Assembly (NCBI GenBank): GCA_964413645.1
Contig: CAYPSA010000004.1
Coordinates: 25,765 to 89,764, forward strand
Source of the DNA: an uncultured Gammaproteobacteria bacterium
Lineage (GTDB): Bacteria; Patescibacteriota; Microgenomatia; UBA1406; HO2-37-13b
Length of the DNA: 64,000 nucleotides
Direction of reading: 5' to 3'
Under the pieces are notes generated by a model. That model searched no databases and was not told where the DNA came from. It worked only from the letters and a program-made list of their open reading frames with translations. Position 1 is the first letter of the stretch. The number at the start of each line of letters is the position of its first letter. A program made the position numbers and the translations under genes. Shown here piece after piece: positions 6,857-59,282 of the stretch.

Positions 6857-9022
6857 TTACTTTTTTGGCTTGGCTTTAATCATTTGTATAATATCCGATC
6901 CTTGAAAATTCATACCATCTTTGAGTAATCCAGTAAGTGTGGCCGAGGTTGAAGAACACAAAAGCGATGTATCTTTCAATTTAAAATTGAATACTGCGTC
7001 CGGCCTACCATCTCTATTAATATCTTGGGTTAAATGAAACGCTTTATGCGTAATTGGATTGATAAATATGTTTCTAGCTCCAGCGAATGCAACCGAATTA
7101 TCATTAATATCTTTAACATCAAACATGTCTGTTCCTAGTACAGCAATCGGGATCATAAGGCCTGAATTATTGCAAAATCCAACATTATTCTTAACGTGTG
7201 GTTCAATATCAATTGTTACGCCTAATTTTAGGATGGTTTGTGCAGGCTGAGGATTGTAAATAAGTTTATATTTGTGTGTTGATTGTTCCGTATATGGATT
7301 ATGTTGTTCAAAAACTTTAATTTTCAATGTCCCAGAACTGTCAGACGCGTGCACCGCAAGAGGAATGTCTAGCAAGTCAGATGTAAGAGAAACAATGTAT
7401 TCTCCTGCCACAGGCGTTCCAATAGTTACCGTATTATTACTTGATGATAAGAGCGAGGAAGATAGATTGGCGTTTGGAATTTCCTCATTTACTCTTCCTT
7501 TTGGATCGGTTACTTGAATTTTCCCCGGATACTTTGTGGTAAATTCAAGAGAGCTAAAATCGCTCGCTGTTTTTTTATAGCGCCTTATTCCGAACGCACT
7601 GTTCGAATAAGGTTTTTGATTTAATCTCGAAATATCATTTCGCGGATCGTTAACAACAAATGTTTCCTGATCTATTCCGGTAATAAGCGCCCAGTGTTCA
7701 TTGTTTTGAACTTTTGCAACGACAGGCTGATCATTCTTAATATCCTCCGCGACTGTTTTTGGATCCCATTCCGTGCTTTTTGCATCACTGAAAGAAACAA
7801 TTTTTTGAGTTCCAAATTTTTTATTTGAATCAGCCGAATATCGATCGGCTGCAGACCAAATGACATTTCCAAATGCATATCCTTGACTCACGCACCCTGA
7901 AGAAACACATTGGGTATTTTTATTAAAGTACTCATTAAGTACTAGAGGACTTGTTTGTTTTCCATCGGGACTTTTGGTAACGCCGTGAAAGCTTAAAAGC
8001 ATTGACAAAGATGTAATAACACACCCGCAATCGGCAATTGTTTTACCGCAATTCAAAGGCTGTTTATCTGCGTTGCCATACAATTCATTTGCCCACAATT
8101 GATTGGTTTGCTTAACCAACGGAATATCTAAAATAAAGGGCGGCGGAGCAGAAGGTGTAAACACGACTACGCGATGATTTCGCGCATCTGCAACGTACAC
8201 TCTGCCCCGCCTATCAACTCCAGTGCCATGGGGGACATTAAGAATGCCTTCGCCAAACATGGTTAATAGTTGACCGTCTTTAGAATATTTCTCAACCCTA
8301 TTTTTATATGTATTTGCGACAAATATGTTGTCGTTTTGATCGATAAATAAGTCTTGTGCAAATGCAAACGAGCCCCATTGTGCAAGACGTATTCCTTGTG
8401 GTGTAAACTTCATTATTGAGTCGTTTGCCATAACATACACGTATCCTTGCGAGTCAACTCTCACAGCTTCCAAACGAGCATGAATATTTAAAACTCCGTT
8501 CGTTCCCCATGAAGTAATCGGGTTCCCAACTGAATCAAATTTTTCGATATAGTTATCTGCATGCACTGAGTACACATAATTATCTGGGCTCACGGCAATA
8601 CCTACTCCGCGTGGAGTAAAGTTTCCACCTTGCTCACCACGCCATTCCGTTAAATAGGTGCCATTTTTATCAAGTTTCACAATGCGATGATTATTTGTGT
8701 CGGCAATGTAAAAATTTCCGTCACTTCCTTGTGCGATTTTTTCGGGATTCTTAAAACCAGTCCATGCTGAAAGAACTTGCGCATTCTGATTAAATAATTG
8801 AATTCGATTATTCAAATAATCCGCAACCAAAACTCTTTCATCATAATCAACATACACATCAACGGGGAAATCAAAATATCCCAGACCAGATCCATACCCT
8901 TTCCAGATTTCAGATAATGAATATGTCGTTTCCGCAGCAATAATTGGGGAAACGAAAATGAATAGCGACAAGAATGTGACTGAAAACACTGATATTGCCA
9001 AACTAAAAAAGAGTCGGTTCAT
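6857..9022 (-). CDS. secreted NHL-repeat protein fused to a C39-like cysteine peptidase-type domain
   Basis: Signal/TM at the N-terminus. Repeated NHL motifs (LVADYLNNRIQLF, YIADTNNHRIVKL, FVANTYKNRVEKY, YVADARNHRVVVF), then CGKTIADCGCVITSLSMLL and NNEHWALITG (Cys/His of peptidase_C39_2-like domains), then a beta-rich C-terminus. Confidence 0.6.
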   Translation of the reverse strand: MNRLFFSLAISVFSVTFLSLFIFVSPIIAAETTYSLSEIWKGYGSGLGYFDFPVDVYVDYDERVLVADYLNNRIQLFNQNAQVLSAWTGFKNPEKIAQGSDGNFYIADTNNHRIVKLDKNGTYLTEWRGEQGGNFTPRGVGIAVSPDNYVYSVHADNYIEKFDSVGNPITSWGTNGVLNIHARLEAVRVDSQGYVYVMANDSIMKFTPQGIRLAQWGSFAFAQDLFIDQNDNIFVANTYKNRVEKYSKDGQLLTMFGEGILNVPHGTGVDRRGRVYVADARNHRVVVFTPSAPPPFILDIPLVKQTNQLWANELYGNADKQPLNCGKTIADCGCVITSLSMLLSFHGVTKSPDGKQTSPLVLNEYFNKNTQCVSSGCVSQGYAFGNVIWSAADRYSADSNKKFGTQKIVSFSDAKSTEWDPKTVAEDIKNDQPVVAKVQNNEHWALITGIDQETFVVNDPRNDISRLNQKPYSNSAFGIRRYKKTASDFSSLEFTTKYPGKIQVTDPKGRVNEEIPNANLSSSLLSSSNNTVTIGTPVAGEYIVSLTSDLLDIPLAVHASDSSGTLKIKVFEQHNPYTEQSTHKYKLIYNPQPAQTILKLGVTIDIEPHVKNNVGFCNNSGLMIPIAVLGTDMFDVKDINDNSVAFAGARNIFINPITHKAFHLTQDINRDGRPDAVFNFKLKDTSLLCSSTSATLTGLLKDGMNFQGSDIIQMIKAKPKK

Positions 9023-9060
9023 ATGGGTGCATATGATACTGACTCTTTTTTTTGAAGTCT

Positions 9061-9097
9061 ACGGTCTATAAGTCCCATTTATGGGACTTTGGGCCGT
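9061..9097. repeat. intergenic repeat/hairpin (acggtctataagtcccatttatgggactttgggccgt)
   Basis: Contains the hairpin aagtcccat/atgggactt. About 27 of 37 positions match 21589-21625, including the 12-mer tataagtcccat. Confidence 0.7.
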
Positions 9098-9107
9098 CAC
9101 AACAGTC

Positions 9108-9338
9108 TTACTTTTTCTTTGTACCAGTCTTCTTTTTTGCTTTTTTAGCCGTCTTTGGTTTCTTAGAAGTGACCTTTTTTACCAATTTTTTCTCAGCTGC
9201 AATTGCTTTTTTTCCTAGGCTCTTTGCAACTCTTACTGTTTTAGTTCTATTTTCTTTTTTTGAAAAAAATATTCCCGCAACAGTTGCGGCAACACCGGCA
9301 AGTACCATTCCAACGAGTCCTGCATTTTTCTTTGCCAT
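9108..9338 (-). CDS. small membrane protein with Lys-rich tail
   Basis: 76 aa with one TM (LVGMVLAGVAATVAGIFF) and a KKAKKK-rich C-terminus. GGAGGTG lies about 9 nt upstream. The overlapping plus-strand ORF 9052-9372 is rejected. Confidence 0.6.
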   Translation of the reverse strand: MAKKNAGLVGMVLAGVAATVAGIFFSKKENRTKTVRVAKSLGKKAIAAEKKLVKKVTSKKPKTAKKAKKKTGTKKK

Positions 9339-11214: not shown

Positions 11215-11977
11215 CCACGTCGAGTAGGTCAGGGCGTTTTTCTTTGGTCAATAAGTATGTTTGTCGCATTCTCCATTTTTCAATTTCGGTATGGTTTCCC
11301 GAAAGCAAAATTTCGGGAACTTTTTTCCCATCATATTCCTCAGGTCGTGTGTAGTGGGGATATTCTAAAAGCTTAAGGGCTTCGATTCCTTTCTTATTTA
11401 TCTCCACTAATCTCTCGTCATGTGGTACGACATTCATCAAATCTCTCACCGCAACTTCATAAAAACTTTCCTGCTCAGTTGCAGCTTCTTTTTTTAACAC
11501 CTGGGGAATTAATCGAACAATCGAATCAATAATCGCTGCGCTAGCAATTTCCCCACCGGTCATAACAAAATCGCCAATAGATACTTCTTCATCGATATAA
11601 TCAAGAACGCGTTCATCAACGCCTTCATAATGCCCGGCAATAATTACCAAATGAGATAGTTTTGAAAATTCGATTGCTTTATTCTGAGAATACGTCGTTC
11701 CTTTTGCGGAAGTGAGAATTTTTTTTGAGACCCCACCTTCGGCTCTACTTGATTCAATACTCTTAAGCGCATCAACAACACAGTCAACACGCAAAAGCAT
11801 ACCCGCTCCTCCACCATAAGGCCGATCGTCAACGGATCCATAGGAGTCTTTTGCAAATTCCCGCAAATTAACAACCTGAATATCGACCAATTGCTTATCA
11901 ATGGCGCGTTTTACAATACTTTCGCTCAAAAAAGCTTGGAAAAGCTTCGGAAAGAGCGTTACAACAGTGATTTTCAT
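11207..11977 (-). CDS. trmD: tRNA (guanine37-N1)-methyltransferase
   Basis: 256 aa with the SPOUT/TrmD pattern (ITLFP..F......S...[23 protein letters not shown]). The last codons run into the hairpin repeat. Confidence 0.9.
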
Positions 11978-11991
11978 GGTATTATTATACT
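11978..11991. promoter_or_regulatory. 14-bp divergent intergenic region with two overlapping -10 boxes
   Basis: The sequence is ggtattattatact. TATTAT (11980-11985) lies 6 nt before the yidD ATG, and TATAAT (revcomp of 11984-11989) lies 6 nt before the trmD ATG. Confidence 0.5.
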
Positions 11992-12228
11992 ATGAAACAT
12001 ATATTAATATATCTTATTCGCACATACCAAAAATTTCCAATTTTAGACAATCCTATTTCACATGCACTCTTGGGGCCATCGTCAGTATGCCGATACTCTC
12101 CCCGATGCTCGGATTATACAATTGATGCTCTTCAAAAATATGGTGTTTCCCGCGGTTCTTGGCTTGCTGTAAAACGAATAGCACGATGTAACCCATACGC
12201 CAAAGGTGGATTTGACCCAGTTCAGTGA
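11992..12228 (+). CDS. yidD: membrane protein insertion efficiency factor YidD
   Basis: 78 aa with the conserved CRY.PSCS.Y-like core ([19 protein letters not shown]) and C-terminal [13 protein letters not shown]. Confidence 0.85.
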
Positions 12229-12710
12229 AACTTTGTGCTCGTTCTCGTATAATATGCGCTATGAGAGTTGCTAATAAAACATTACATCGCGAATATACGC
12301 CTATTGAAAAATATGAGGCAGGGATTGTATTGACGGGTGCAGAAGTAAAAGCAATCCGAACTGGCAGTATGCGTCTTGAAAAAGCATATGTACGATTTAT
12401 AGATAATGAATTATTTTTGGTTAATGCGGAAGTTTCAATCTACAAATTCTCACGGCCACAAGATTATAATCCTAGCCGATCACGTAAGCTACTCCTAAAA
12501 CGCTCTGAATTACTCCGATTACAAACAAAGTTGAAAAGTGCCCCTAACTTGACCATTGTACCTATAGCATGCTATAATAAAAAGAGCTTAATTAAGCTCG
12601 AAATCGCACTTGCCAAAGGTAAAAAATCGTGGGAAGTTAAGCGAGTAGAACAGCGAAAAGACGAAGATAGGAAGGCTGAAAAAGAGTTAAAAGAATATAT
12701 TAAGAACTAA
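12225..12710 (+). CDS. smpB: SsrA-binding protein SmpB
   Basis: Contains [31 protein letters not shown]... Start is either GTG 12225 (GTGA overlap with the yidD stop) or ATG 12261. tmRNA follows directly. Confidence 0.85.
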
Positions 12711-12712
12711 TT

Positions 12713-13107
12713 GGGGATGAACGGTATCGACGGGAGGATCGCACGTTTACAAATCGCCAGGTCGGAGCTATTCGTTAAATAGCATACTAAATGCAGATAA
12801 CAAGTCTGTAGGTTCTTACGGTTACGGTTATGCATTTGCATAAACTTAATTGCTAAGACCCGTTTTCTTTCACGTTTTACTCTGTGTTTTACAGAAAGAA
12901 GGCGCCAACCAATACAGGGTGCGTAGTGTGTGGGTTTTAAAGCTAGTTTACTACACGCTTCAAAGATCTTATCGCAAGACAAGAACAAACAATTGTCGCT
13001 TTTTAAAATTGTTGATTATATAAAAAGCGTATAAATCATCTACACCTGGCTACACGATTGTAAAATTGCCCTTTCGGACCCGGGTTCAACTCCCGGCATC
13101 TCCACCA
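12713..13107 (+). ncRNA. ssrA: tmRNA (transfer-messenger RNA)
   Basis: The 5' end GGGGAUGAACGGUAUCGACGGG and the 3' end GGACCCGGGUUCAACUCCCGGCAUCUCCACCA form the tRNA-like domain. The internal tag frame gca gat aac aag tct gta ggt tct tac ggt tac ggt tat gca ttt gca taa gives ADNKSVGSYGYGYAFA*. Confidence 0.9.
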
Positions 13108-13111
13108 AAGA

Positions 13112-13495
13112 TCATTTCTTAAACAGACTCCTGAATATACTAAGAATCGAAGAAGAAGCGGACTTTCTTTCTGCAGCCGCCGGTACTACTTCAACAACGA
13201 CAGATGCTGAAGGAGGTAATTGATAACCAACTTCGCCGGCTAATTGATCTAACAGTTCCGCTCCTTTTTGAGTACGCGCAACTTGTTCTTGAGATAGTCC
13301 ACCAACTCGTCTTTCGGCTTCATCAAGACGAGCATTGGTCACTTCTAAATCTGCTTCCATTCCTGACCGAAGATCTCTTGGCCCACCAAGAGCGTTTTGA
13401 CCTACGACCGCTCTCATTCCAGCAAGACCACTTCCGGCTTCTAGCCTTAGTCCATTAGCCCTAGTAATTCTTGAAGATTCTCCATCTTCTGCCAT
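13112..13495 (-). CDS. hypothetical protein (127 aa, coiled-coil-like, higher G+C)
   Basis: ATG ORF ending 4 nt from the tmRNA 3' end. TAGAAT lies 6 nt upstream of the ATG. No family recognised. Confidence 0.45.
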   Translation of the reverse strand: MAEDGESSRITRANGLRLEAGSGLAGMRAVVGQNALGGPRDLRSGMEADLEVTNARLDEAERRVGGLSQEQVARTQKGAELLDQLAGEVGYQLPPSASVVVEVVPAAAERKSASSSILSIFRSLFKK

Positions 13496-13530
13496 AAAAC
13501 AATTCTACACAGAATGAATTAATGAAACAA

Positions 13531-14055
13531 TCAGATTTCCCGACGCTTGTTAGGAAAATCGCGAACAAATAATCGCTCTTCTTTAGAATATTTCATGTCC
13601 GATGAATGGACAAATTCGCGATATCTAGTCATTGCCTCGTCTGTCATATTCCCAATTCCCCGCATATTTATTACTGTTGGAATTACTAACCTAGTATAAG
13701 TTGTACCGGGATCTTGAATAAATTTTATGGATTGGTCTGCAAAATGGTCTACCCATCGCATTCCTGCTGAAACACGAATCCCTTTTTGCTTTGCTCCTTG
13801 AAGTTGTAAAACTTCTAAATCGTCGTTATCACACTCTTCGTAACTAATAACTGCACCTAAATGTTGTTTATATACAAGCGCCAGAGTAAAATCTCCAGCA
13901 ACCGGTGCTTTAAGACCTATTCTCGCCCCCCCCACTAACAATTGCGTCTCCAATTGTTCAACTTGTAGCGGCGGCATATCGCGATTTGAAATAATATACT
14001 GGCGATACTCTTCTGCTCTTGGCGGTGTCCATAACGCTTCTAAATTGTTTTTCAT
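13531..14055 (-). CDS. hypothetical protein (174 aa, higher G+C)
   Basis: ATG ORF with TGTATAAT 8 nt upstream. No TM and no recognised family. Confidence 0.5.
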   Translation of the reverse strand: MKNNLEALWTPPRAEEYRQYIISNRDMPPLQVEQLETQLLVGGARIGLKAPVAGDFTLALVYKQHLGAVISYEECDNDDLEVLQLQGAKQKGIRVSAGMRWVDHFADQSIKFIQDPGTTYTRLVIPTVINMRGIGNMTDEAMTRYREFVHSSDMKYSKEERLFVRDFPNKRREI

Positions 14056-14092
14056 GAAGACATATTATACAGGAAAGTGCTGTTAGAGCGCG

Positions 14093-14965
14093 TTATTCTG
14101 CAATTCTATTCATCTTATACGCGCTTATAATAATGATTGCGCCTGCAATCCATTCTTTTACCGAAGGGGCTTCCGAATAAAACAGAATTCCAAGAATTAT
14201 TGAAAAAAGTGGAGAAAGCGTTAATAGGTTATTCGCCAAAACTGCCTCGATTTTTTCAAAGCCATAATTTGCTGCTAATTGATATGCAACATTAATTCCT
14301 CCTGCTCCCAAAAGAGCGTAGTAAACAGATGTGCTTACTGGAATATGTACGCGTTCTCCAAGCAGTAGTGAGAGTGCCCACAATACAATAGTTGCAATAA
14401 ACAGGAGTAACGAAGAAATTTCATAGTTATTCAATAGTTGTGTATGTTTACTACGTAATACCTGACCTAACGATACAAATACTATTGAAAATAGTGCCAA
14501 CATCTCTCCTGTCCCCCAGCTAAACAAAGATGCATAGTCCTTAACAGAAACAAGCATAACTCCCAAGAAGCCCGTGAATAAATAGAGTGCTTTTGACCGA
14601 GTCAATTTTTCCCCTAGAACCAGAACTCCTAATAACGCAACAATTGGGAGCGAATCAATAAAAGCTACCGTACTTAATTTCGCCATACCTACTGCTATTG
14701 AAAACGGAACAACCCCTAACAAATATGTTGAAAGTGACCGAAGAACAAGTAGTCTCCATTCCCCAGCTGTAATTCGCACTAATTTTTTATAATCAATGTG
14801 TTTGGCAAAAACGACAATACTAAGCACGAAAGCAATGCCAACACGCAAATATACTTGTTGCAATGGAGTGAAAAATTCACCCAGTATTCTGGCAAACAAG
14901 CCTGTGAGGGAAAGAATGAGCGCAAGGCCAATAATTGCAATTATACCTTTCTGCTTCGTGTTCAT
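14093..14965 (-). CDS. EamA/DMT-family transporter
   Basis: 290 aa with about 10 TM helices in two EamA-like halves. Confidence 0.75.
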   Translation of the reverse strand: MNTKQKGIIAIIGLALILSLTGLFARILGEFFTPLQQVYLRVGIAFVLSIVVFAKHIDYKKLVRITAGEWRLLVLRSLSTYLLGVVPFSIAVGMAKLSTVAFIDSLPIVALLGVLVLGEKLTRSKALYLFTGFLGVMLVSVKDYASLFSWGTGEMLALFSIVFVSLGQVLRSKHTQLLNNYEISSLLLFIATIVLWALSLLLGERVHIPVSTSVYYALLGAGGINVAYQLAANYGFEKIEAVLANNLLTLSPLFSIILGILFYSEAPSVKEWIAGAIIIISAYKMNRIAE

Positions 14966-15162
14966 TGAGAAAGTATACCAGGATGTACTTCGCGAACATA
15001 CATGCCTTCTTCAGCCGAAAAACGCATTCCCGCTGATTCATATTTTGTTATAGGCGATAATCGATTAGTAAGTGCTGATTCACGAGTATTGGGAACAGTC
15101 CCGCGCAATTTAATACAAAGCACCTCCTAGTTTTGTTATGCGAACTGTGATCAGTAGATTGG

Positions 15163-15183
15163 GTATACAATTAGATTGTATAC
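15163..15183. promoter_or_regulatory. perfect 9-3-9 palindrome gtatacaat-tag-attgtatac
   Basis: Lies 5 nt downstream of the sigma-like gene stop. No U-tract follows, so it is either an atypical terminator or a protein-binding site. Confidence 0.5.
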
Positions 15184-15188
15184 ACTAT

Positions 15189-16244
15189 TTATGAGCTCAA
15201 TCCTCGACGCTGCATTTCTCTCTTAATTCTAGCAAAGGCTCTTTCCTTGCTTTGATGGATCGCGTTTCTCGCTACCCCAAGCTTTCTTGCAATCTCGGCT
15301 TGTGACAACTCAACACCATCTTCTGTTAGTCCATAAAGAAGTCGTATTATTTCCAGCTCTCGAGGAGTAACAACATTAAGTAGCGAACTTACCAGATCCG
15401 ACATAGTTTCGTGGTCCATCTCTTCCAACACCAAACCTTCTACATCGGCTTCTTGAGAAATGTCTCTAATATGTCTTTCTAAAACATCTCCTGATCGACT
15501 CCCTGTCATCTCTAATGACGTGATTCTCGGCAAATTTAAACGCCGCATTACTTTCTTTATCGATAATCCAGAGGCTTCGGCAATTTCCACCAAAGTAGGA
15601 TCTATGTTTCCATTAAGCTGGAGCTCCTGTCTCGCCTTTTGTATGGAGTGTAGGTCTGTATGAACGTGGCGCGGGAGACGAATCATACCACCATATCCCT
15701 GAACAAATCTCTGCACATCCCGCTCTACTAAACCTAAACAATATGTTAATAGCGTAACATCACGGGCCATATCAAATCTATATATGTTTTCTTGATATGA
15801 TTGGAATCCCACCTGTAGGAGATCTTGTATGGGAATCCCTGAGGCTGCGTACCTTCTTACAGTCTTACTAATTACCCTCATGTCGGCCAACAAAATTCGT
15901 GCGACCGCGAGTCTTCCGTGCTCAATTTTATGTAGGTCTGATTCACTAGGGCTTGCCCCGGCATTTTTGATTTCTAAATAGCGCGCGTTTCCATCTTGAG
16001 CAATTTTAACAAGTTCTCGCTTGCGTATTTCATCAATCTGCGCTCCTTGCTTAACCGCTCCCGGGAGCACCTCTCCATCTTCGGGGAATCTAATTATAAG
16101 ACCTTGATCCTCGGTTATTGCTGATAGTAAATATAGTTCTCGCTGCAAAGCGACAGCACTGTTTAAATCAGGCTTAATTAAACGATCTGTAGTGCTGGTG
16201 TCTAATTGGGAAGGGAATCCGGTAAAATGATCTTCTTTTGACAT
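15189..16244 (-). CDS. divergent sigma-70 family protein
   Basis: Region 2-like DLLQVGFQSYQENIYRFDMARDVTLLTYCLGLVERDVQRFVQGYGGMIRLPRHV aligns to DLIQEGN.GL..A..KFD...G..FSTYA.WWIRQAI.R......R.IR.P.H. Region 4-like VTPRELEIIRLLYG...LSQAEIARKLGVARNAIHQSKERAFARIK. G+C is higher than in neighbours. Confidence 0.7.
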   Translation of the reverse strand: MSKEDHFTGFPSQLDTSTTDRLIKPDLNSAVALQRELYLLSAITEDQGLIIRFPEDGEVLPGAVKQGAQIDEIRKRELVKIAQDGNARYLEIKNAGASPSESDLHKIEHGRLAVARILLADMRVISKTVRRYAASGIPIQDLLQVGFQSYQENIYRFDMARDVTLLTYCLGLVERDVQRFVQGYGGMIRLPRHVHTDLHSIQKARQELQLNGNIDPTLVEIAEASGLSIKKVMRRLNLPRITSLEMTGSRSGDVLERHIRDISQEADVEGLVLEEMDHETMSDLVSSLLNVVTPRELEIIRLLYGLTEDGVELSQAEIARKLGVARNAIHQSKERAFARIKREMQRRGLSS

Positions 16245-16359
16245 GTTTTTATGTCCTATATTATAGCATATGGTCGTGTTATAGGTTTATATTTTAACTT
16301 CAACGTTATTGATGTTGTTTTATTAGAACTCTTCAAAGCATTCAGAACGTCACTGAGGA

Positions 16360-17709
16360 ATGATAAAATGTGGCATGCGTATTCAGAAAATCAACTCTTT
16401 ATTATTCTTTCTGTTTTTCCTCCTCCTCCCAACACAACTAGGGAAACATTTCTTTTTGGATTTTTCGTATGTGAATGGGGTCAGGATAGATTATTTAGCG
16501 CCTACTCTCTATTTGATAGATTTTGTAGTTGTTGCGCTAATGGTAGTTAATTGGAAGGTGGTATGGGGATCCCTAGTCAACGCTCTGAGATTTCTCACTG
16601 CGTTCGAAATGACAAAGGTATCGCTCAGAATGACAAAGGGAGACGCGATGACAAAGAGAGACATGGTGACAAAGTGGTTAGGGATAACAGTACTCGCTCT
16701 GGTGGGAATGAATATTGTATTAGCACAGGAACCGATTATGGCTCTGTATATGGCAGTGAGATATGTGGAGATGTGGGTGGTGTTTGTTCTTGTCCGAAAC
16801 CTTTACGAGCTCCGGGGGCTCGTAAAACCGTTGTTTATTGGAGTAGTAATTCAATTCGGATTATCAATTTATCAAATATCCGCCCAGCATAGTGCGCATG
16901 GAATTTTTTATTGGCTCGGCGAGCGAGCATTCTCTATTTCCACGCCTGGAATTGCAACCATTTCCCTCTTCGACACAATCGCTTTGCGCCCATACGGAAC
17001 ATTCTCACATCCGAATAGTTTAGGAGGATTTTACGCATTGTCTTATGTGTTTTTTTTGATGAGCCAGCTTAAGCTCCCCCGACGTATAGAGATAATGAGG
17101 TATGGAATATTACTATTAAGTGGATTTTTAGTGCTCATGTCGTTTTCGAAAGTGGCTATTGGAGCCGTGTTACTCACCACGCTCTATTACGTACTCCGTG
17201 TTTTAAAAATAAATTGTCGGTGGTGCAAATGGGGTCGCGTGTTTATGTTGGGTATCATTTCTCTCATTTTTCTTAGTGGGAAATCTGACGTCGCATCGCT
17301 CGACAAGAGAGTTGCGTTAACCCAATCCTCTCTCCATACGATTGCAAATTATCCATTCTTCGGAACCGGCCTGGGAAACTCGTTGTATTCCCAGAGTGTT
17401 ATGAGTCAACAGCTTCCCTATTTTTTCCTGCAGCCGGTACATAATATTTTCTTGCTGTTTATAAGTGAGGCAGGATTATTACTAAGTGCTGTTATAGCTC
17501 TCATTGCGTGGAGAGAGATAAAAGGAAAGAAGAAGGATGACCCTTCGGCTTCGCTCAGGGTTAACAAGAAGCGTGTGCTACTCTCTATCATAGCCGTGAT
17601 CGTTATCACTGGAATGCTTGATCATTACTGGCTAACGTTAATTCAAAATCAACTTGCGTTAGCAGCGTTTTTAGGAGTTGGAATAGGAATAAAGAGGGCG
17701 ACTACCTAG
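16360..17709 (+). CDS. O-antigen ligase-like (Wzy_C) polytopic membrane protein with in-frame repeat insertion
   Basis: About 12 TM helices. Contains YGTFSHPNSLGGFYAL and LGERAF..STPGIA motifs typical of O-antigen ligase-like proteins. Codons covering 16585-16673 derive from a dispersed repeat. Confidence 0.6.
   Translation: MIKCGMRIQKINSLLFFLFFLLLPTQLGKHFFLDFSYVNGVRIDYLAPTLYLIDFVVVALMVVNWKVVWGSLVNALRFLTAFEMTKVSLRMTKGDAMTKRDMVTKWLGITVLALVGMNIVLAQEPIMALYMAVRYVEMWVVFVLVRNLYELRGLVKPLFIGVVIQFGLSIYQISAQHSAHGIFYWLGERAFSISTPGIATISLFDTIALRPYGTFSHPNSLGGFYALSYVFFLMSQLKLPRRIEIMRYGILLLSGFLVLMSFSKVAIGAVLLTTLYYVLRVLKINCRWCKWGRVFMLGIISLIFLSGKSDVASLDKRVALTQSSLHTIANYPFFGTGLGNSLYSQSVMSQQLPYFFLQPVHNIFLLFISEAGLLLSAVIALIAWREIKGKKKDDPSASLRVNKKRVLLSIIAVIVITGMLDHYWLTLIQNQLALAAFLGVGIGIKRATT
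16585..16673. repeat. GTCATYC-family repeat (inverted orientation) plus four tandem (R)ATGACAAAG heads, inside a CDS
   Basis: ctgagatttctcactgcgttcgaaatgacaaagg is followed by tcgctcagaatgacaaagg, gcgatgacaaag and ggtgacaaag. The first unit is the reverse complement of the gtcatttcgaac...gagaaatctc type seen at 19765-19843. Confidence 0.85.
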
Positions 17710-25623: not shown

Positions 25624-26415
25624 ATGGAACCCCATCCGGTACCTCGACAGATTACTACATTTGAGTTCAAATTAATTGGGTTTATGACCTTAAAAGAGTT
25701 TGCGTATATGATTGTGTTTGCAGGCTTGGCGACAATTACATATTTTTTGACACCGGGGGAACTGTTTAAATATATAGGCGCCGCGATAGTTTTTGCCATT
25801 GGAATCTTTTTAGCTTTTTACAAATATAATGAACGGTCAGTAGACGTGTGGATTCGTAATTTAGTACTTAAGATGTTTTCATCGTCGCAGTACTATTACC
25901 ATAAGAAAAACGATCCTCCTTCATTCTTAGAAAACATTATTTACGATAAAAATATTGCGGTTTTGCACGCAGATGCGCAGAAGAAGCTAACGAGCTATTT
26001 GGGAAAAGTTGAGAAAGCTCCTGTCGTAGGGACAAAGGTTGAAATGGCGCCCCCTACTCCAGTAGACACTGTTGAAACAGAGCCAGTTCAGACTCCCACT
26101 CCTATCGATACTTCTCCTCCTGAGCCAGTAGTGGAGACACTCGTCTCCGAACACCCGGCGCTCTCCGGAATTGTAAAAAACGGCAAAGATTTACCTATCC
26201 CAAATATTTTGGTGTATGTGAAAAATAAAGAAGGTCAAGTTGCGCGGATTCTTAAAACAGACAATCATGGTGTGTTTTCGACCACAAAACCCCTCGGAAG
26301 CGACCAGATTATTCTTGAACCCAAAGATAGCGCGAATCGATTCTTTTTTGATACACTGAATATTAATCCGGGTGCCGGTACGCCCCTTGTTATTCGTTCC
26401 CGAGAGGCATTGTAG
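25624..26415 (+). CDS. PrgI/VirB3-like T4SS membrane protein with C-terminal carboxypeptidase-regulatory-like beta domain
   Basis: The N-terminus VPRQITTFEFKLIGFMTLKEFAYMIVFAGLATITYFL matches the PrgI-family pattern. A Pro/Thr/Val linker follows, then GIVKNGKDLPIPNILVYVKNKEGQVARILKTDNHGVF. Confidence 0.55.
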   Translation: MEPHPVPRQITTFEFKLIGFMTLKEFAYMIVFAGLATITYFLTPGELFKYIGAAIVFAIGIFLAFYKYNERSVDVWIRNLVLKMFSSSQYYYHKKNDPPSFLENIIYDKNIAVLHADAQKKLTSYLGKVEKAPVVGTKVEMAPPTPVDTVETEPVQTPTPIDTSPPEPVVETLVSEHPALSGIVKNGKDLPIPNILVYVKNKEGQVARILKTDNHGVFSTTKPLGSDQIILEPKDSANRFFFDTLNINPGAGTPLVIRSREAL

Positions 26416-26423
26416 CCACATAT

Positions 26424-27077
26424 ATGACTATTCGAAAACCAACAAGCCCCGTAAAATCATCTACACAAGACTTCATCGAAATCGAAGCGGTATTTGAAGA
26501 TGTGGTTATGATGAAAGATTATTCGTGCGCCATTTTAATAGAGGCAGGAACAACAAACTTCGGCCTCCTTTCAGAAGAAGAGCAACAGGCATTAATATAC
26601 TCTTATGCTTCGCTATTAAATTCTCTATCATTCCCTGTTCAAATTTCAATCATTTCCAAACGAATGGATATTTCATCGTACCTGAGCTACTTAGAAGAAA
26701 AATTGGAGTCTCAAAAAGATGAAACGCTTCGCAAGCGACTAATAACATACACGGAGTTCATTAAAAACATGGTGAAAAAAAGTACAATTTTGGAAAAGAA
26801 CTTTTATTTTGTAATTCCATTCTCCCCGCTTGAGCTTGGACTTTCATCAAATACAAAGAGGAAGCTAGAAAAAGACTATGTATTTACCCGAGCAAAAACA
26901 GCGCTATATCCCAAGCGCGATCATTTATTGCGACTGTTAAAAAAAGCGGGTCTTGGAGGAAGGGCATTGTATGAGCAAGAAGTTTCTGAGATTTTTTATA
27001 ACCTATACAATCCTTCAGCGACTGGCCGAAAACTTTCTGCAATTAAAAGTTACACCGACATTATTTTAACGTCATGA
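26424..27077 (+). CDS. VirB4/TrbE-type N-terminal domain encoded as a separate ORF
   Basis: TQDFIEIEAVFEDVVMMKDYSCAILIEAGTTNFGLLSEEEQQALIYSYASLLNSLSFPVQISIISKRMD follows the pattern of the N-terminal region of Gram-positive VirB4 homologues. Overlaps the next ORF by ATGA. Confidence 0.55.
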   Translation: MTIRKPTSPVKSSTQDFIEIEAVFEDVVMMKDYSCAILIEAGTTNFGLLSEEEQQALIYSYASLLNSLSFPVQISIISKRMDISSYLSYLEEKLESQKDETLRKRLITYTEFIKNMVKKSTILEKNFYFVIPFSPLELGLSSNTKRKLEKDYVFTRAKTALYPKRDHLLRLLKKAGLGGRALYEQEVSEIFYNLYNPSATGRKLSAIKSYTDIILTS

Positions 27078-28780
27078 AAAACTTAGCGAGTACGTTATTA
27101 ATGCCAGGAGCCGTGTCGCTTAAAGATATTGTTGCGCCTTCATTTGTAGAGGTCGATTTTAACAATATTAAAATTGATGAAAAGTTTTATCGAACGCTAT
27201 TCGTTGTCGGTTACCCTCGATTCGTGGCTCCAAACTGGCTCTCATCGCTCATAGCTTTTGATCACCCACTTTATGTTTCCATGTTCATTTATCCAAATGA
27301 GTCCAAAGATATCTTGAAAGACTTGCGTAGAAAAGTCGCTGAAATGGAAGCAACCATTGATTCAGATATTAAGGCTGGGAAAGTTGTAGATCCTTCCGTT
27401 CAGGTAGCGCTTGATGATGCACTTATGCTTCAAAATGAACTTGCCGCCGGAAGTGAGCGCTTTTTTCAGTTCGGGTTGTATGTAACAATTCCAGCCGACA
27501 CCAAGATCGAACTTGATCGAATTACTAAGGAAGTTGAATCTTCTCTGTCGTCGCTCCTTATTGTCGCAAAAACCGCCACGCTTGAAATGGAAGAAGGATT
27601 CAAATCTACTCTACCTTTGTTCTTAGATAAATTGCGTATTTGGAGAAATATGGACACTACATCACTCGCTACGTCGTTTCCGTTTGTAACTTCAAGCCTT
27701 ACTCAAAACGAAGGAATTATGTATGGGGTAAATGAGCACGATGGTAGTTTGGTAATTTTTGATCGGTTCTCACTTGAAAGTGCAAACTCTATTATCTTGG
27801 GAAAGTCAGGAGGAGGAAAAAGCTTTTTGGTTAAATTAGAAGCACTTCGCTTACTCCTTATGGGAACTGACGTTATTATTATCGATCCAGAAAACGAGTA
27901 TGAAAAGCTAACCACAGCCGTAGGCGGTGAATTTGCTTCATTTTCAATCTCATCGACATTCAAAATCAATCCATTCGACCTTGGCAGCGATGATCAAGAG
28001 CCCGATGAGCTAGCAAACAAAATTCAAAGCCTCCATTCACTTATGCGTGTAGTAATGGGCGATCTTACGCCTGCACAAGACGCACTTTTAGATCGTTCGC
28101 TCGTTACTACCTATGCTCAGAAGGGAATAACGCAAGACGTCACCACCCACAAAAAGGAACCACCTCTTATGGAAGATCTTTATAAAGTTCTTTTGGGAAC
28201 CGAAACTGCCGAAGGCGCAGAATTAGCTGCTCGTCTAGAGAAATTCATTAAAGGGTCTGCGAGTGGAATTTTTAATCAGCAATCAAATTTTGATATTAAG
28301 AATAAATTTACCGTGTTTGGTGTGCGTGATTTAGAAGAGAACCTTCGACCGATTGCCATGTATATTATTCTTGATTTCGTATGGAGTAGAATTCGAAAAG
28401 ACAAAAGAAAGAGAGTACTCGTTGTTGACGAGGCATGGTACCTTATAAAACACAAAGACTCTGCAGCATTCTTATTTAGTCTCGCCAAACGTGCGCGAAA
28501 ATATCAACTCGGACTCACTACCATTACTCAAGACGTGGAGGATTTCTTGAGCGTTGAAGAGGGTCGGGCTATATTGACTAACTCAAGCCTTCAAATACTG
28601 TTAAAACAAAGCACAGCAGCAATAGACCGGGTCGCAGATACTTTCAACCTAACCGCCGGAGAAAAACACTTTTTACTATCTGGTGGCGTAGGAGAAGGTC
28701 TCTTTTTTGCAGGATCTTCGCATGTAGGTATTAAAATCTTAGCTTCCGAAGAAGAAAATGCAACAATTTCGCAATCGTAG
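27074..28780 (+). CDS. virB4: VirB4-like T4SS ATPase (middle and ATPase domains)
   Basis: Walker A GKSGGGKSFLVK, Walker B VLVVDEAWYL, and TTITQDVEDF. The N-terminal YRTLFVVGYPRFVAPNWLSSL is typical of VirB4. Confidence 0.8.
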   Translation: MKNLASTLLMPGAVSLKDIVAPSFVEVDFNNIKIDEKFYRTLFVVGYPRFVAPNWLSSLIAFDHPLYVSMFIYPNESKDILKDLRRKVAEMEATIDSDIKAGKVVDPSVQVALDDALMLQNELAAGSERFFQFGLYVTIPADTKIELDRITKEVESSLSSLLIVAKTATLEMEEGFKSTLPLFLDKLRIWRNMDTTSLATSFPFVTSSLTQNEGIMYGVNEHDGSLVIFDRFSLESANSIILGKSGGGKSFLVKLEALRLLLMGTDVIIIDPENEYEKLTTAVGGEFASFSISSTFKINPFDLGSDDQEPDELANKIQSLHSLMRVVMGDLTPAQDALLDRSLVTTYAQKGITQDVTTHKKEPPLMEDLYKVLLGTETAEGAELAARLEKFIKGSASGIFNQQSNFDIKNKFTVFGVRDLEENLRPIAMYIILDFVWSRIRKDKRKRVLVVDEAWYLIKHKDSAAFLFSLAKRARKYQLGLTTITQDVEDFLSVEEGRAILTNSSLQILLKQSTAAIDRVADTFNLTAGEKHFLLSGGVGEGLFFAGSSHVGIKILASEEENATISQS

Positions 28781-38400: not shown

Positions 38401-38434
38401 ACCGCCTATACTATATTCCTATCGAATCGATTTG

Positions 38435-38878
38435 TCAATTGCCCAGGAGTTCCTTCACCATTTTCGTAATTCTACTTGGATCAGCTTTTGCACGTAGCTC
38501 TTTTATTGTTACTCCAAATAAAGCGTTTGGGCTCGACTCTCGCAACGCAGTATTTGCAGAGATAACGCGCTCAACTTCTGCTCGAAGCTCTTCATCGCTT
38601 ATCTCAGTAGGGAGATACGCAGAGAGCACTGTAATTTGCGCCTCGTTTTCAGCTACCAAATCTGCCCGCCCACCTTTTTCAAACATTTCTTTTGCATCAT
38701 TCAATTGTTTTACTTGTTTTCGAATTACTCCCATTGCTTCCTCGTCTGAAAGTTCGTGCCCTAAATCGATCTGTTTGTTTTTTAACTCAGCGCTTAGGAG
38801 TCGGAGTGTTGTAAGCGTAGATTCATCTTTTGCCTTTAAAGCAGTGAGCTGGTCTTGTTGAATTTTTTCTGTAAGCAT
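38435..38878 (-). CDS. GatB/YqeY domain protein
   Basis: The pattern L.......A.K.kd......lR.l.s..kn..i......l.deE...vi.k..Kq is visible (LTALKAKDESTLTTLRLLSAELKNKQI). Confidence 0.8.
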   Translation of the reverse strand: MLTEKIQQDQLTALKAKDESTLTTLRLLSAELKNKQIDLGHELSDEEAMGVIRKQVKQLNDAKEMFEKGGRADLVAENEAQITVLSAYLPTEISDEELRAEVERVISANTALRESSPNALFGVTIKELRAKADPSRITKMVKELLGN

Positions 38879-56942: not shown

Positions 56943-59282
56943 ATGGATGATGTAACCGGCAGAATCGTACTCTCTATACTTGTAATATTCACGTTTATAT
57001 TCGCTGCTTTATTGACTGTTGGCATCTTTTACCTATATGTCATGTACGTACGGCTTAAAAAGCGAGAAAAGGCCTCTTTGGACATGGTTACGATGGAAGT
57101 TCGGGTTCCAAAAGATAATGAAATCAAAATAGATGCTGCTGAACAGATGTTTTCAGGGTTTTCTGGACTTGCAACGCATGGGTTTTGGCATTTTTTTGAA
57201 GTTTCAGACACGATTGCATTTGAGATTGTTGCCAAAGAAGCTGAAATCCGGTTTTATGTTACTGCTCCATCAAAGCTCCGTGATTTAGTTGAAAAACAGA
57301 TTTATGGATATTATTCTGCGGCCGATATTAAGCTAGTTGACGAGCCACACGTGTTTACTGAAGATGGTGCGGTAGCCTGGGCAGAGCTTCGACAAAAAAA
57401 GGATGAATTTAAGCCAATTAAAACATACAAAGAGCTTCCCACCGACCCATTGTCGGGAATAACGTCTGCTCTTTCGAAGATGGGTGTAGGTGAAGGAGCT
57501 GTGCTGCAAATTCTTATTCGTCCAATCAATAGTCATTGGAAACATAAGGGAAAAGAATATATTTCTGGTACAAAAAAGAAAGAAGCAACCCCCGATGAGG
57601 CAAGTTTTAGCGTAGATGCAAAAACACTTGAGAAAATTGATGAAAAAGTTTCGCGATCGGGTTTTGAAACGGCAATTCGCATTGTTGTGTCATCAAAAAA
57701 TAAAGACATGGCAGATTTACATTTGAAAAATATCAAATCGTCTTTTTCACAATTTACATCTGACTTAAATAACTTTGGATCTGCTAACATGCTTTTCAAA
57801 AGCAGCTTTATGTTGAATTTTATTTATAAATTTTTCCCCGTGTTTAATTTACCCATTTATAAGACAACGTCTATCCTTTCGACCGATGAACTGGCGAGTA
57901 TTTTCCATTTCCCAAATAAAACAATAGAAACACCGCATATTAAATGGTTAAAAGCGAAAACTGCTCCAGTGGCCGCAGAGGTTCCTCAGAGTGGCGGAAC
58001 AAGTATTGGAATGGGACAATATCGAGGTGTTCGACGACCGATTCATATTCAGCTCGTCGATCGTCGCAGACACACGTATATTATCGGAAAAACAGGTACT
58101 GGAAAATCACAACTGCTTTTGGAAATGGCCCGACAAGATATTGTTGCGGGTCATGGTGTTTGCGTCATTGATCCGCATGGAGATTTGATTGAGGATATTA
58201 TTAAGCACATTCCTCCTTCACGAGCCGAGGATATTATTTATTTCGATCCTTCCGATGGGGAACGGCCCATGGGGCTTAACTTGCTCGACGCTCGGACCGA
58301 GGAAGAGCAGCATTTTATTACATCTGCAATTATTAACTTGATGTATAAATTGTACGATCCACAGAGAACGGGAATTATTGGTCCACGATTTGAACACGCG
58401 GTTCGTAATGCAATGCTTACGGTTATGGTCGATCCTGGTGCTACGTTTATTGAGGTCGTTCGAGTGCTGACGGATCAAAAATATGTGCAGGAACTCCTGC
58501 CAAAAGTAAAAGATCCTATTATTCGTCGATACTGGACTGATCAAATCGCTCAAACGTCAGACTTCCATAAGTCCGAAGTTCTTGATTATATCGTTTCAAA
58601 ATTTGGTCGATTTGTTACCAACAAAACAATGCGAAATATTATTGGGCAATCAAATTCCGCATTTAATTTCCGAGAAGTTATGGATGAAGGAAAGGTGCTT
58701 CTTATTAATCTTTCCAAAGGAAAATTGGGAGAAGAAAATTCTAACTTCTTAGGTCTTGTTTTGGTCCCAAAAATATTGGTTGCGGCAATGAGCCGACAAG
58801 ATATTCCAGAAGAAAAACGCCGAGATTTTTTCTTGTACGTCGACGAGTTTCAAAATTTTGCAACGCCAGATTTTGCGACAATTCTTTCAGAGGCTCGAAA
58901 ATATCGATTATCGCTTACCGTAGCAAATCAGTTCATCGGACAAATGGATGAAGAAGTCAAAAATGCTGTTTTTGGAAACGTAGGAACCTTGATGTGTTTC
59001 CGTGTTGGTGTAACGGATGCTTCATATATGTCACATGAATTCCAACCTATTTTTAGTGAATCAGATTTAATTAACATTGATCGATTTAATGCATACATGA
59101 AAACAATCGTTGATAATGAACCAGTTCCTCCATTCTCGGTCGACACAACAAAAGATATGACCGAGCTTAATGCAGCAGCAAATCCAAAAGTTGCTGATGC
59201 TATAATTCAGCTATCACGACTTAAATATGGCCGACCTCGTGAACTTGTTGAGGCCGAAATTATTCAACGCTCCAAACTATGA
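56943..59282 (+). CDS. T4SS coupling-protein-like (TraD/VirD4/TcpA-type) ATPase
   Basis: N-terminal TM (IVLSILVIFTFIFAALLTVGIFYLYVMY), Walker A GKTGTGKSQLL, Walker B FFLYVDEFQNF, and LTVANQF. TATAAT lies 6 nt before the ATG. Confidence 0.7.
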   Translation: MDDVTGRIVLSILVIFTFIFAALLTVGIFYLYVMYVRLKKREKASLDMVTMEVRVPKDNEIKIDAAEQMFSGFSGLATHGFWHFFEVSDTIAFEIVAKEAEIRFYVTAPSKLRDLVEKQIYGYYSAADIKLVDEPHVFTEDGAVAWAELRQKKDEFKPIKTYKELPTDPLSGITSALSKMGVGEGAVLQILIRPINSHWKHKGKEYISGTKKKEATPDEASFSVDAKTLEKIDEKVSRSGFETAIRIVVSSKNKDMADLHLKNIKSSFSQFTSDLNNFGSANMLFKSSFMLNFIYKFFPVFNLPIYKTTSILSTDELASIFHFPNKTIETPHIKWLKAKTAPVAAEVPQSGGTSIGMGQYRGVRRPIHIQLVDRRRHTYIIGKTGTGKSQLLLEMARQDIVAGHGVCVIDPHGDLIEDIIKHIPPSRAEDIIYFDPSDGERPMGLNLLDARTEEEQHFITSAIINLMYKLYDPQRTGIIGPRFEHAVRNAMLTVMVDPGATFIEVVRVLTDQKYVQELLPKVKDPIIRRYWTDQIAQTSDFHKSEVLDYIVSKFGRFVTNKTMRNIIGQSNSAFNFREVMDEGKVLLINLSKGKLGEENSNFLGLVLVPKILVAAMSRQDIPEEKRRDFFLYVDEFQNFATPDFATILSEARKYRLSLTVANQFIGQMDEEVKNAVFGNVGTLMCFRVGVTDASYMSHEFQPIFSESDLINIDRFNAYMKTIVDNEPVPPFSVDTTKDMTELNAAANPKVADAIIQLSRLKYGRPRELVEAEIIQRSKL

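Follow-up and report, generated by a model that had tools for sequence, protein, structure and literature searches.

The 64,000-nucleotide stretch of contig CAYPSA010000004.1 analyzed here, referred to as the window, contains a gene for a divergent sigma-70-family protein in which the tryptophan pair of region 2 is replaced by other residues. We consider it fairly probable that this protein is a functional accessory (alternative) initiation factor of the sigma-70 family, that it belongs to a lineage-restricted subfamily, which we call TYCL, and that it forms a module with a 174-amino-acid (aa) protein encoded close by. The gene was identified through profile matches, an AlphaFold 2 (AF2) model and a residue table:

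15189..16244, minus strand: divergent sigma gene, subtype T1 of the TYCL family

Family membership and domain architecture

The open reading frame (ORF) at 15189..16244 on the minus strand encodes 351 aa, which form a sigma-70-family protein whose modelled domains run from region 1.2 to region 4. A preliminary description of the locus had called the product sigma-70-like, with a helix-turn-helix resembling region 4.2, and this is borne out by the Pfam model Sigma70_r4 (PF04545; 40.1 bits, above the cutoff of 24.1), by the superfamily model TIGR02937 (46.7 against a cutoff of 42.9), which is the sole NCBIfam model passed, by the best sequence matches among PDB chains (SigA and RpoS, about 1e-17 in phmmer) and by the AF2 model. 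Many NCBIfam sigma models match residues ~64-350 of the protein. The best of them is the RpoD/SigA-family model TIGR02997 (99.4 bits against a cutoff of 384.5); the primary sigma model TIGR02393 is not reached (79.9 bits against 354), and the group 3 models TIGR02479 (49.5 against 189.6) and TIGR02980 (76.8 against 234) also score under their cutoffs. The highest single profile score, 113 bits, is obtained with the phage sigma family phrog_351; as this is a broad RpoD-like family, the match is not specific.

The AF2 model has a predicted local distance difference test score (pLDDT) above 90 from about residue 70 on, with low confidence for residues 1-70. Its domains are the following:

1-70: N-terminus
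~72-95: region 1.2
~101-186: sigma2, with helices 101-130 corresponding to region 2.1
~192-236: sigma3
~241-267: region 3.2 linker
~268-346: sigma4

Top Foldseek matches of the model are primary SigA chains, with a Foldseek probability of 1.0 to SigA. No match to Pfam r1_1 or r1_2 was found in the protein at E <= 1; a DPNS..L..EL motif resembles DPVRMYLREI, and helix 72-95 aligns structurally with region 1.2. The unique N-terminus of ~130 aa proposed earlier is thus overstated: only residues 1-70 or so are unique, since the helices of regions 1.2 and 2.1 begin at about residue 72 with pLDDT above 90 and the TIGR02997 alignment begins at residue 64. Sigma3, confidently modelled by AF2 and just under the cutoff in Pfam, sets the protein apart from the extracytoplasmic function (group 4) factors, which are defined by sigma2 and sigma4 alone (PF07638, E = 0.11).

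The sigma factor of the MZA defence system, MzaA, was considered separately and ruled out: NF041931 scores 68 against 800 bits, the PADLOC MzaA model matches nothing beyond the sigma domain (52.7 bits), and PADLOC gives no match to the neighbouring genes.

Residues kept, lost and remodelled

Positions are given in E. coli sigma-70 numbering. The E. coli reference segment used is consistent with the alignment to B. subtilis SigA. Opposite TYATWWIRQAI of primary sigma factors the protein has TYCLGLVERDV, both in the HMMER (phmmer) alignment and in a MAFFT alignment of the 154 best hits from a HMMER search of 1.84 billion representative proteins, 145 of which have W434. The register is the same in the two, so that alignment with a hidden Markov model (HMM) does not bring back the Trp pair. 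The replacement reported in the preliminary description therefore stands, and the outcome that was named there as refuting it, a region 2 HMM alignment restoring the conserved residues, did not occur.

With residue roles in sigma2 taken from PMC4496690 and pocket definitions from PMC5101437, the changes can be sorted by function. Kept throughout the TYCL family are D403 and Q406 in region 2.2, involved in core binding, and F419, D420, T429 and Y430 of the -11A pocket; R441 is mostly kept. Lost are F427, W433, W434 and Q437. This copy shows Y425V, F427L, W433G, W434L and Q437R among the sigma-70 melting and -10 residues, with Y430 alone kept. The -7T pocket is remodelled (N383D, L386V/A and S428L/I in the family; D, V and L in this copy), and N383, Asp here, is Asn in all 147 of the other hits (147/147). 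Region 3.2 can still be aligned to the SigA finger (phmmer against PDB). Region 4.2 is canonical in subtypes T2A and T3 of the family, introduced below, and altered in this T1 copy (E585N, R586A, R588H); the subtypes differ from each other in both regions 2.4 and 4.2.

Group 3 sigma factors such as sigma-28 are also devoid of the W433/W434 dyad and yet initiate transcription, with a conserved Arg replacing W434 (PMC12784957). Loss of the wedge is hence compatible with function and, being already known from group 3, makes for an interesting finding that is not categorically new. At the W434 position the TYCL family has L, V, Y, G or P, never R.

A mechanism may be proposed from these residues. 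The protein would bind core RNA polymerase through the finger of region 3.2, through sigma4 and through the region 2.2 residues that are kept (equivalents of D403 and Q406), and would capture a flipped -11-type base in the kept pocket formed by F419, D420, T429 and Y430. By analogy with group 3 sigma factors, DNA could be opened without the Trp wedge. A different downstream -10 position would be read because the -7T pocket is remodelled, and -35 specificity would vary by subtype, according to whether region 4.2 is canonical (T2A, T3) or altered (T1). It is probably a canonical housekeeping holoenzyme, distinct from that of TYCL, that transcribes the TYCL genes themselves, and the 174-aa protein would be the best candidate for a partner, such as an anti-sigma factor or co-factor, or for a target.

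A rare family with four subtypes

In the exhaustive HMMER search of the 1.84 billion representatives, the only hits below 1e-30 are in the query's own cluster, all others being at most 35% identical. The TYCL motif occurs in two of these hits, P0011 and P0044. Further members were obtained from loci and profile searches: P0002 (87% identical), P0155, P0156 and a copy in locus L136. Each TYCL cluster has one or two members among about 15 billion proteins. Across all protein collections searched the family divides into four subtypes, which are ~30% identical to each other:

T1: window, L003
T2A: L005, L130
T2B: L005, L134, L136
T3: L135

Eight copies are thus present in seven loci. Seven are complete ORFs and the eighth (L136) is cut by the contig end; no frameshift or internal stop is present in any of the eight, and the family-invariant motifs are conserved among subtypes. 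Scans of JGI metagenomes and IMG/VR with the family profile returned only ordinary sigma-70 proteins, at most 31% identical and none with the TYCL motif; those from IMG/VR are 24-31% identical. A scan of genome contigs with the sigma sequence found no relative, the exact 8-mers used being too specific; a scan with RNase Y, encoded 2 kb from the sigma gene, provided taxonomy and synteny. It matched metagenome-assembled genomes (MAGs) of Candidatus Roizmanbacteria and Microgenomates (L004, 94% identity; L005, 92%; L006, 77%), and the genomic context, with RecA, RecX, RNase Y, HU, SmpB, transfer-messenger RNA (tmRNA) and TrmD, is typical of the candidate phyla radiation (CPR). The host is accordingly a member of Candidatus Roizmanbacteria. 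Among the collections searched, the TYCL subfamily is limited to a subclade of Candidatus Roizmanbacteria.

A sigma-domain protein of another kind was seen in a Microgenomates MAG with 55% RNase Y identity: an 1155-aa protein (L016, 2298-5762) has a sigma-70 domain in its last ~330 residues (FSVYASFWIQNEF), preceded by an uncharacterised N-terminal extension of ~800 residues.

The 174-aa candidate partner

A family of orphan proteins accompanies the TYCL genes. Homologues of the 174-aa orphan of the window are present in all seven sigma-bearing loci (7/7) and in neither of the two sigma-less loci (0/2). When the search was started from the orphan, six clusters only were retrieved, and the one new informative locus, L136, again had a TYCL sigma. 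Searches of the orphan against Pfam, PHROG and PADLOC gave no match. Of a second partner-type gene, the last ~25 codons are left in the window, within a 53-aa ORF that is called as a gene in Logan contigs. Of the earlier proposal that the sigma protein regulates the set of orphan genes, what holds is genetic linkage to the 174-aa orphan, at all seven loci; the orphans are without the promoter motif of the sigma gene described below.

A variable island between tmRNA and Wzy_C

Every TYCL copy lies between a divergent Wzy_C gene and the 3' end of the tmRNA-SmpB region. In the window, this island and its boundaries comprise, besides the sigma gene:

12713..13107, plus strand: tmRNA gene, which bounds the variable island on the right with its 3' end
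13112..13495, minus strand: 127-aa Ala/Gly/Arg-rich orphan, present in most island versions, including the sigma-less L004, and so not sigma-specific
13531..14055, minus strand: 174-aa orphan of the partner family, with a homologue in every sigma-bearing locus
14093..14965, minus strand: EamA-family transporter gene, a co-directional island gene with 92% nucleotide identity to L005, against 76% for core genes
14962..15123, minus strand: 53-aa ORF overlapping the EamA start, whose C-terminal half (ESAGMRFSAEEGMYVREVHPGILSQ) is a remnant of a second, L130-type copy of the partner gene
15026..15130, plus strand: 3' remnant of an S26 signal-peptidase gene (ending in IPADSYFVIGDNRLVSADSRVLGTVPRNLIQSTS and YFVIGDNRLVSADSRVLGTVPRNLIQSTS, each followed by a stop)
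16360..17709, plus strand: Wzy_C (O-antigen-ligase-like) gene, divergent from the sigma gene and left-hand boundary of the island

Island versions range from ~1 to 8 kb. Genes for EamA, S26 peptidase and MazE/PIN are among those that vary, as are small orphans, and none of the versions has an integrase, structural or replication gene. The S26 peptidase gene is full-length in L003, L005 and L135, and its remnant in the window marks a recombination joint. In L004 and L006 the slot contains neither a sigma gene nor a remnant of one, and the more distant L007-L013 are also without sigma. L005 has two TYCL paralogues, a T2A gene in the same slot and a second, T2B copy. The slot sigma of L005 is 29% identical to that of the window, yet HU is 97%, RNase Y 92% and EamA 90% identical. 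More generally, flanks of the slot are 69-97% identical where the slot itself holds 29%-identical subtypes.

Between the window and L003, synonymous divergence (dS) of the sigma gene is 0.17, with a ratio of non-synonymous to synonymous divergence (dN/dS, omega) of 0.41, against dS of 1.1-2.0 and dN/dS of 0.01-0.13 for five flanking genes. The T2A pair shows the same pattern of dS and dN/dS as this T1 pair. By these values the sigma gene is far younger than its flanks and fast-evolving. A mosaic structure is also seen with blastn: nucleotide identity to L003 is 90% over the sigma block and 74% over the core, whereas L005 shares 92-97% with the block of EamA and the S26 remnant and 76% with the core. 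The dS of the sigma gene, about 10-fold under that of the flanking genes, together with these mosaic blocks argues for lateral exchange, and the interval at 13108-16359 of the window, like its counterparts in L003, L005, L130, L134, L135 and L136, is a mosaic recombination hot spot.

Several features of individual loci bear on the history of the island. A distance of 5 nt separates the sigma stop of L134 from the tmRNA 3' end. In both L005 (10579-10592) and L134 (1400-1413) the T2B stop is followed by agatt+tggtggaga, which in L134 runs into the true tmRNA 3' end; L005 keeps 9 nt before homology breaks. This 9-nt remnant of the tmRNA end looks like an attachment site, with no integrase nearby. 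L005 also has a 2-kb insert (7247-9321) of 53.6% G+C in a locus of 42.6%, between EamA and the second sigma copy; its ORFs, of which those of 312 and 233 aa are paralogous and another has 153 aa, are without Pfam or PADLOC matches, and it looks foreign. In the sigma-less L004, the slot adjoining Wzy_C has an 1112-aa ORF (11564-14902) without Pfam match. The Wzy_C protein encoded at 16360-17709 is itself 69-75% identical in amino acids to those of L004, L005 and L130, where the adjacent HU is 97-99% and RNase Y 92-94% identical.

We may also hypothesize that a mobile element or prophage, integrated at tmRNA and now degraded, has the sigma gene as its cargo, and that the role of the gene is tied to the element, such as driving its genes, and not to host physiology. 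The island does adjoin the tmRNA 3' end in every locus, at 5 nt from the sigma stop in L134, a 9-nt tmRNA remnant follows the T2B copy of L005, some versions contain MazE/PIN modules and the G+C-rich insert, and lateral exchange is indicated by dS and mosaic structure; the best single profile match is phrog_351. Yet integrase, structural and replication genes are missing from every version, the IMG/VR sigmas are no closer than 31%, and the islands are short and contain cellular-type genes (EamA, S26 peptidase). We regard this explanation as unlikely.

Elsewhere in the window, many orphan ORFs are interspersed with genes like those of type IV secretion or conjugation (25624-28780 and 56943-59282); they encode a PrgI family protein, a VirB4/TraG P-loop protein and a TrwB/TraG-like coupling protein.

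Variation between close orthologues

Besides those at W433, W434, N409 and R588, most changes between the window and L003 sigma proteins sit in the disordered N-terminus, where omega is 0.61, compared with 0.33 over residues 71-351. The wedge positions themselves are thus among those changed, as detailed below. Such a pattern, with omega elevated and wedge positions varying freely even at 87% identity, would be expected of a sigma-like protein that no longer initiates and acts as a decoy or competitor on core RNA polymerase or as a sigma-derived DNA-binding regulator; a decoy was among the roles first suggested for this protein. That the Trp wedge is lost, along with F427, Q437 and residues of the -7T pocket, fits as well. 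Against it, group 3 sigma factors initiate without the Trp pair (PMC12784957), and all four domains are modelled at high confidence; a pure decoy, furthermore, needs neither finger nor base pocket. We find the decoy role rather improbable, because core-binding residues (D403, Q406), the -11A pocket and a linker like the 3.2 finger are all kept.

Promoter of the sigma gene

The sigma gene of the window is preceded by a consensus extended -10 promoter and, at some distance, by an inverted partner of its TATAGG sequence:

16255..16268, minus strand: promoter core TGcTATAATATAGG, with TG at 16268-16267 and the -10 hexamer TATAAT at 16265-16260, followed by ATAGG
16280..16285, minus strand: CCTATA, inverted partner of TATAGG (16260-16255), 19 nt upstream, conserved in T1, T2A and T3

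The ATG lies 15 nt after the -10 hexamer, so that the leader is very short, and it has no Shine-Dalgarno sequence. Directly upstream of each of the seven complete TYCL genes is the core TAnAATATAGG(C/A)C, with 10-15 nt from -10 hexamer to ATG, which makes these promoters near-leaderless; it is exactly TATAATATAGG in six of the seven and TAGAATATAGG in L134, and the upstream TG of an extended -10 is present in five. CCTATA could serve as a -35-like element or as half of an operator. Elsewhere in the window and in the other loci, including the upstream regions of orphans and other genes, the promoter motif is absent, save for one exact match in L032 and a match with one mismatch at the consensus promoter of the IMPDH gene. 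Since the paralogues differ in their DNA-reading residues, the TYCL genes are most likely driven by a common factor. We would expect this to be the housekeeping holoenzyme, possibly together with a repressor that binds the inverted repeat.

Accessory or housekeeping factor

Near-consensus promoters precede recA (TTGACA-17-TATCAT), HU (TTGACA-17-TACCAT) and IMPDH (TTGACA-17-TATAGT), and tmRNA too. The relatives compared share those of recA and HU, whether the slot contains a T1 sigma, a T2A sigma or no TYCL sigma, which implies a separate housekeeping sigma. This evidence is limited to top-scoring, well-placed and phylogenetically conserved sites, as sigma-70-like sites overall are not enriched (37, against 40.8 expected). 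The absence of -35-reading residues from T1 (E585N, R588H) and the differences between subtypes in regions 2.4 and 4.2 likewise lead us to infer a common canonical sigma.

A primary sigma factor would be expected to be universal, single-copy and conserved within its clade. In the loci compared, the TYCL family is none of these: no sigma is present in the slot of L004 and L006, the gene is duplicated in L005, and identity between subtypes is 29%. The preliminary description had allowed that the gene might simply be the housekeeping sigma of its lineage if it were the only sigma of the complete genome and orthologues with the same substitutions were universal in the clade; the sigma-less slots of L004 and L006 show that orthologues are not universal. 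Its suggestion of an alternative sigma with a non-canonical promoter specificity is supported indirectly, by the absences from the slot, the L005 duplication, the rarity and hypervariability of the family and the conserved recA and HU promoters.

A divergent primary sigma, comparable to the many divergent proteins of CPR bacteria, has several points in its favour. No other sigma is found in the 64-kb window or in its 10-kb extension, the best subfamily profile matches are to group 1/2 families and the Foldseek matches to SigA, a region 1.2-like helix is present, the gene's own promoter is a consensus extended -10, and the L016 protein shows that odd sigma-domain proteins occur in Microgenomates. 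In addition to the absence from the slot of L004 and L006 and the two paralogues of L005, this explanation conflicts with the contrast between 29% identity of same-slot subtypes and 92% identity of RNase Y, with a handful of sequences among ~15 billion proteins, with dS values that point to recent lateral exchange, with the loss of E585 and R588 from T1 where TTGACA is kept at recA and HU in genomes with different subtypes or no sigma in the slot, and with Asp at a position where all other hits have Asn. It is very unlikely in our judgment.

The promoter of the IMPDH gene (38401-38446, minus strand) is a further observation on gene expression in this organism. It lies 9 nt from the ATG, without a Shine-Dalgarno sequence, which suggests leaderless or near-leaderless mRNAs in the host organism.

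Weighing the accessory-factor reading

Several observations weigh against a functional accessory factor. In profile searches, Sigma70_r2 (PF04542; 21.3 bits) is narrowly under its cutoff of 24, Sigma70_r3 (PF04539; 24.7 bits) is just under its cutoff of 25.3, and no NCBIfam subfamily cutoff is reached. The evidence for accessory status is indirect: an HMM built from the 154 sigma hits detected no second sigma among window ORFs or in L001-L003, and no canonical rpoD was found in the window, the 10-kb extension or the related loci, where the unrelated L016 protein is the only other sigma. Searches beyond the window ends gave the same picture: tblastn with the four TYCL subtypes, which does not amount to a general sigma model, found nothing in L132 (the 10-kb Logan extension at the right end) or in L131 (the left-end contig), and no sigma Pfam domain is present among the genes called in these two contigs. 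No promoter controlled by a TYCL sigma was identified. The two closest orthologues, from the window and L003 (87% identical), differ at the W433, W434, N409 and R588 positions, and their sigma2 domains show one synonymous against seven non-synonymous changes, a pattern that could reflect relaxed constraint and not adaptive change. Finally, the model of the 174-aa orphan, made from a 6-sequence alignment, is unreliable (pLDDT 42).

That the gene is simply decaying under relaxed selection, with no current function, would agree with the sigma2 counts, with dN/dS of 0.41 overall and 0.61 in the N-terminus and with loss from some relatives, but is hardly credible for a family with intact ORFs, four full-length subtypes at ~30% identity, conserved promoter and invariant motifs, and an omega of 0.33 over residues 71-351.

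The reading of TYCL proteins as functional accessory factors may be extended. Sigma gene and 174-aa gene could make up a swappable cassette at the tmRNA 3' end, of which alleles at ~30% identity are exchanged among Roizmanbacteria and in which evolution is fastest at DNA-reading and melting positions. TYCL would then be a new sigma-70 group that opens DNA without Trp wedge or canonical -7T pocket, and that may co-evolve with its partner, in a relation similar to that of sigma and anti-sigma, or be engaged in an arms race with phage or host. We put this forward as a speculation, with some chance of being correct and a greater one of being wrong.

The palindrome and base composition

The gap that separates the sigma gene from the convergent remnant of the S26 peptidase gene contains the following feature:

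15163..15183, no strand assigned: perfect 9+3+9 palindrome GTATACAATTAGATTGTATAC

The preliminary description was right on the existence of this perfect 21-bp palindrome and on its position 5 nt past the TAA stop of the sigma gene; its significance is another matter. The window contains 3 perfect hairpins whose stems are 9 bp or longer, and first-order Markov simulations predict 3.1. Only 2 pairs of the palindrome are G-C, it is not followed by a U-tract on the sigma strand, and the local fold has an energy of -11 kcal/mol (z = -2.4). The sequence is identical in the L003 locus of the 87% orthologue, which is uninformative because background identity is 90%, and it is absent after the other subtypes. 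As a recurrent motif it was not found, being unique in the window. We thus reject it as a significant feature; although statistically unremarkable, it could act as a bidirectional terminator or form a weak hairpin.

Nor does base composition single out the gene. A G+C content above that of its neighbours and a composition shared with orphan genes had been suggested; at 43.4% G+C, against a mean of 40.0 +/- 3.0% for 58 genes (z = 1.1), with 8 of the 58 higher, the argument from composition is not supported.

Relation to known sigma factors

Group 1/2 factors (RpoD/SigA, RpoS and the cyanobacterial group 2; TIGR02997, TIGR02393) are closest to TYCL in sequence and fold. The modelled domain order, from 1.2-like helix to sigma4, is the same, and the equivalents of D403, Q406, F419, T429, Y430 and R441 are kept. 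Unlike them, TYCL proteins are far under the curated cutoffs (99 against 384 bits), have no region 1.1 and no Pfam r1_2 match, and show N383D, F427L, W433G, W434L and Q437R, to which this copy adds E585N and R588H; the genes are island-borne and not conserved across the clade. Group 3 factors (sigma-28/FliA; SigB/SigF/SigG; TIGR02980, TIGR02479) are of similar size and share the absence of the W433/W434 dyad, and the TIGR02980 score of 76.8 bits is near the best group 2 score, with curated cutoffs unmet. TYCL differs from them in having no Arg at the W434 position and no neighbours of flagellar, sporulation or RsbW type. Phage or mobile sigma-70-like proteins (PHROG 351) give the highest profile score (113 bits), and an exchanged island at tmRNA fits mobile cargo; unlike phage sigmas, TYCL genes have no adjacent phage genes, and IMG/VR is without a close relative.

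Transcription control has hardly been studied in CPR bacteria (Patescibacteria), whose small genomes are believed to encode very few regulators. A hypervariable sigma factor that is exchanged laterally and has a dedicated partner would represent a rare accessory regulatory capacity in this group. The locus also draws attention to the stretch from tmRNA to Wzy_C as a hot spot of recombination in Roizmanbacteria. The natural variation of TYCL proteins, in which Trp wedge and -7T pocket are lost and the -11A pocket is kept, may be read as an experiment on which sigma2 residues are dispensable.

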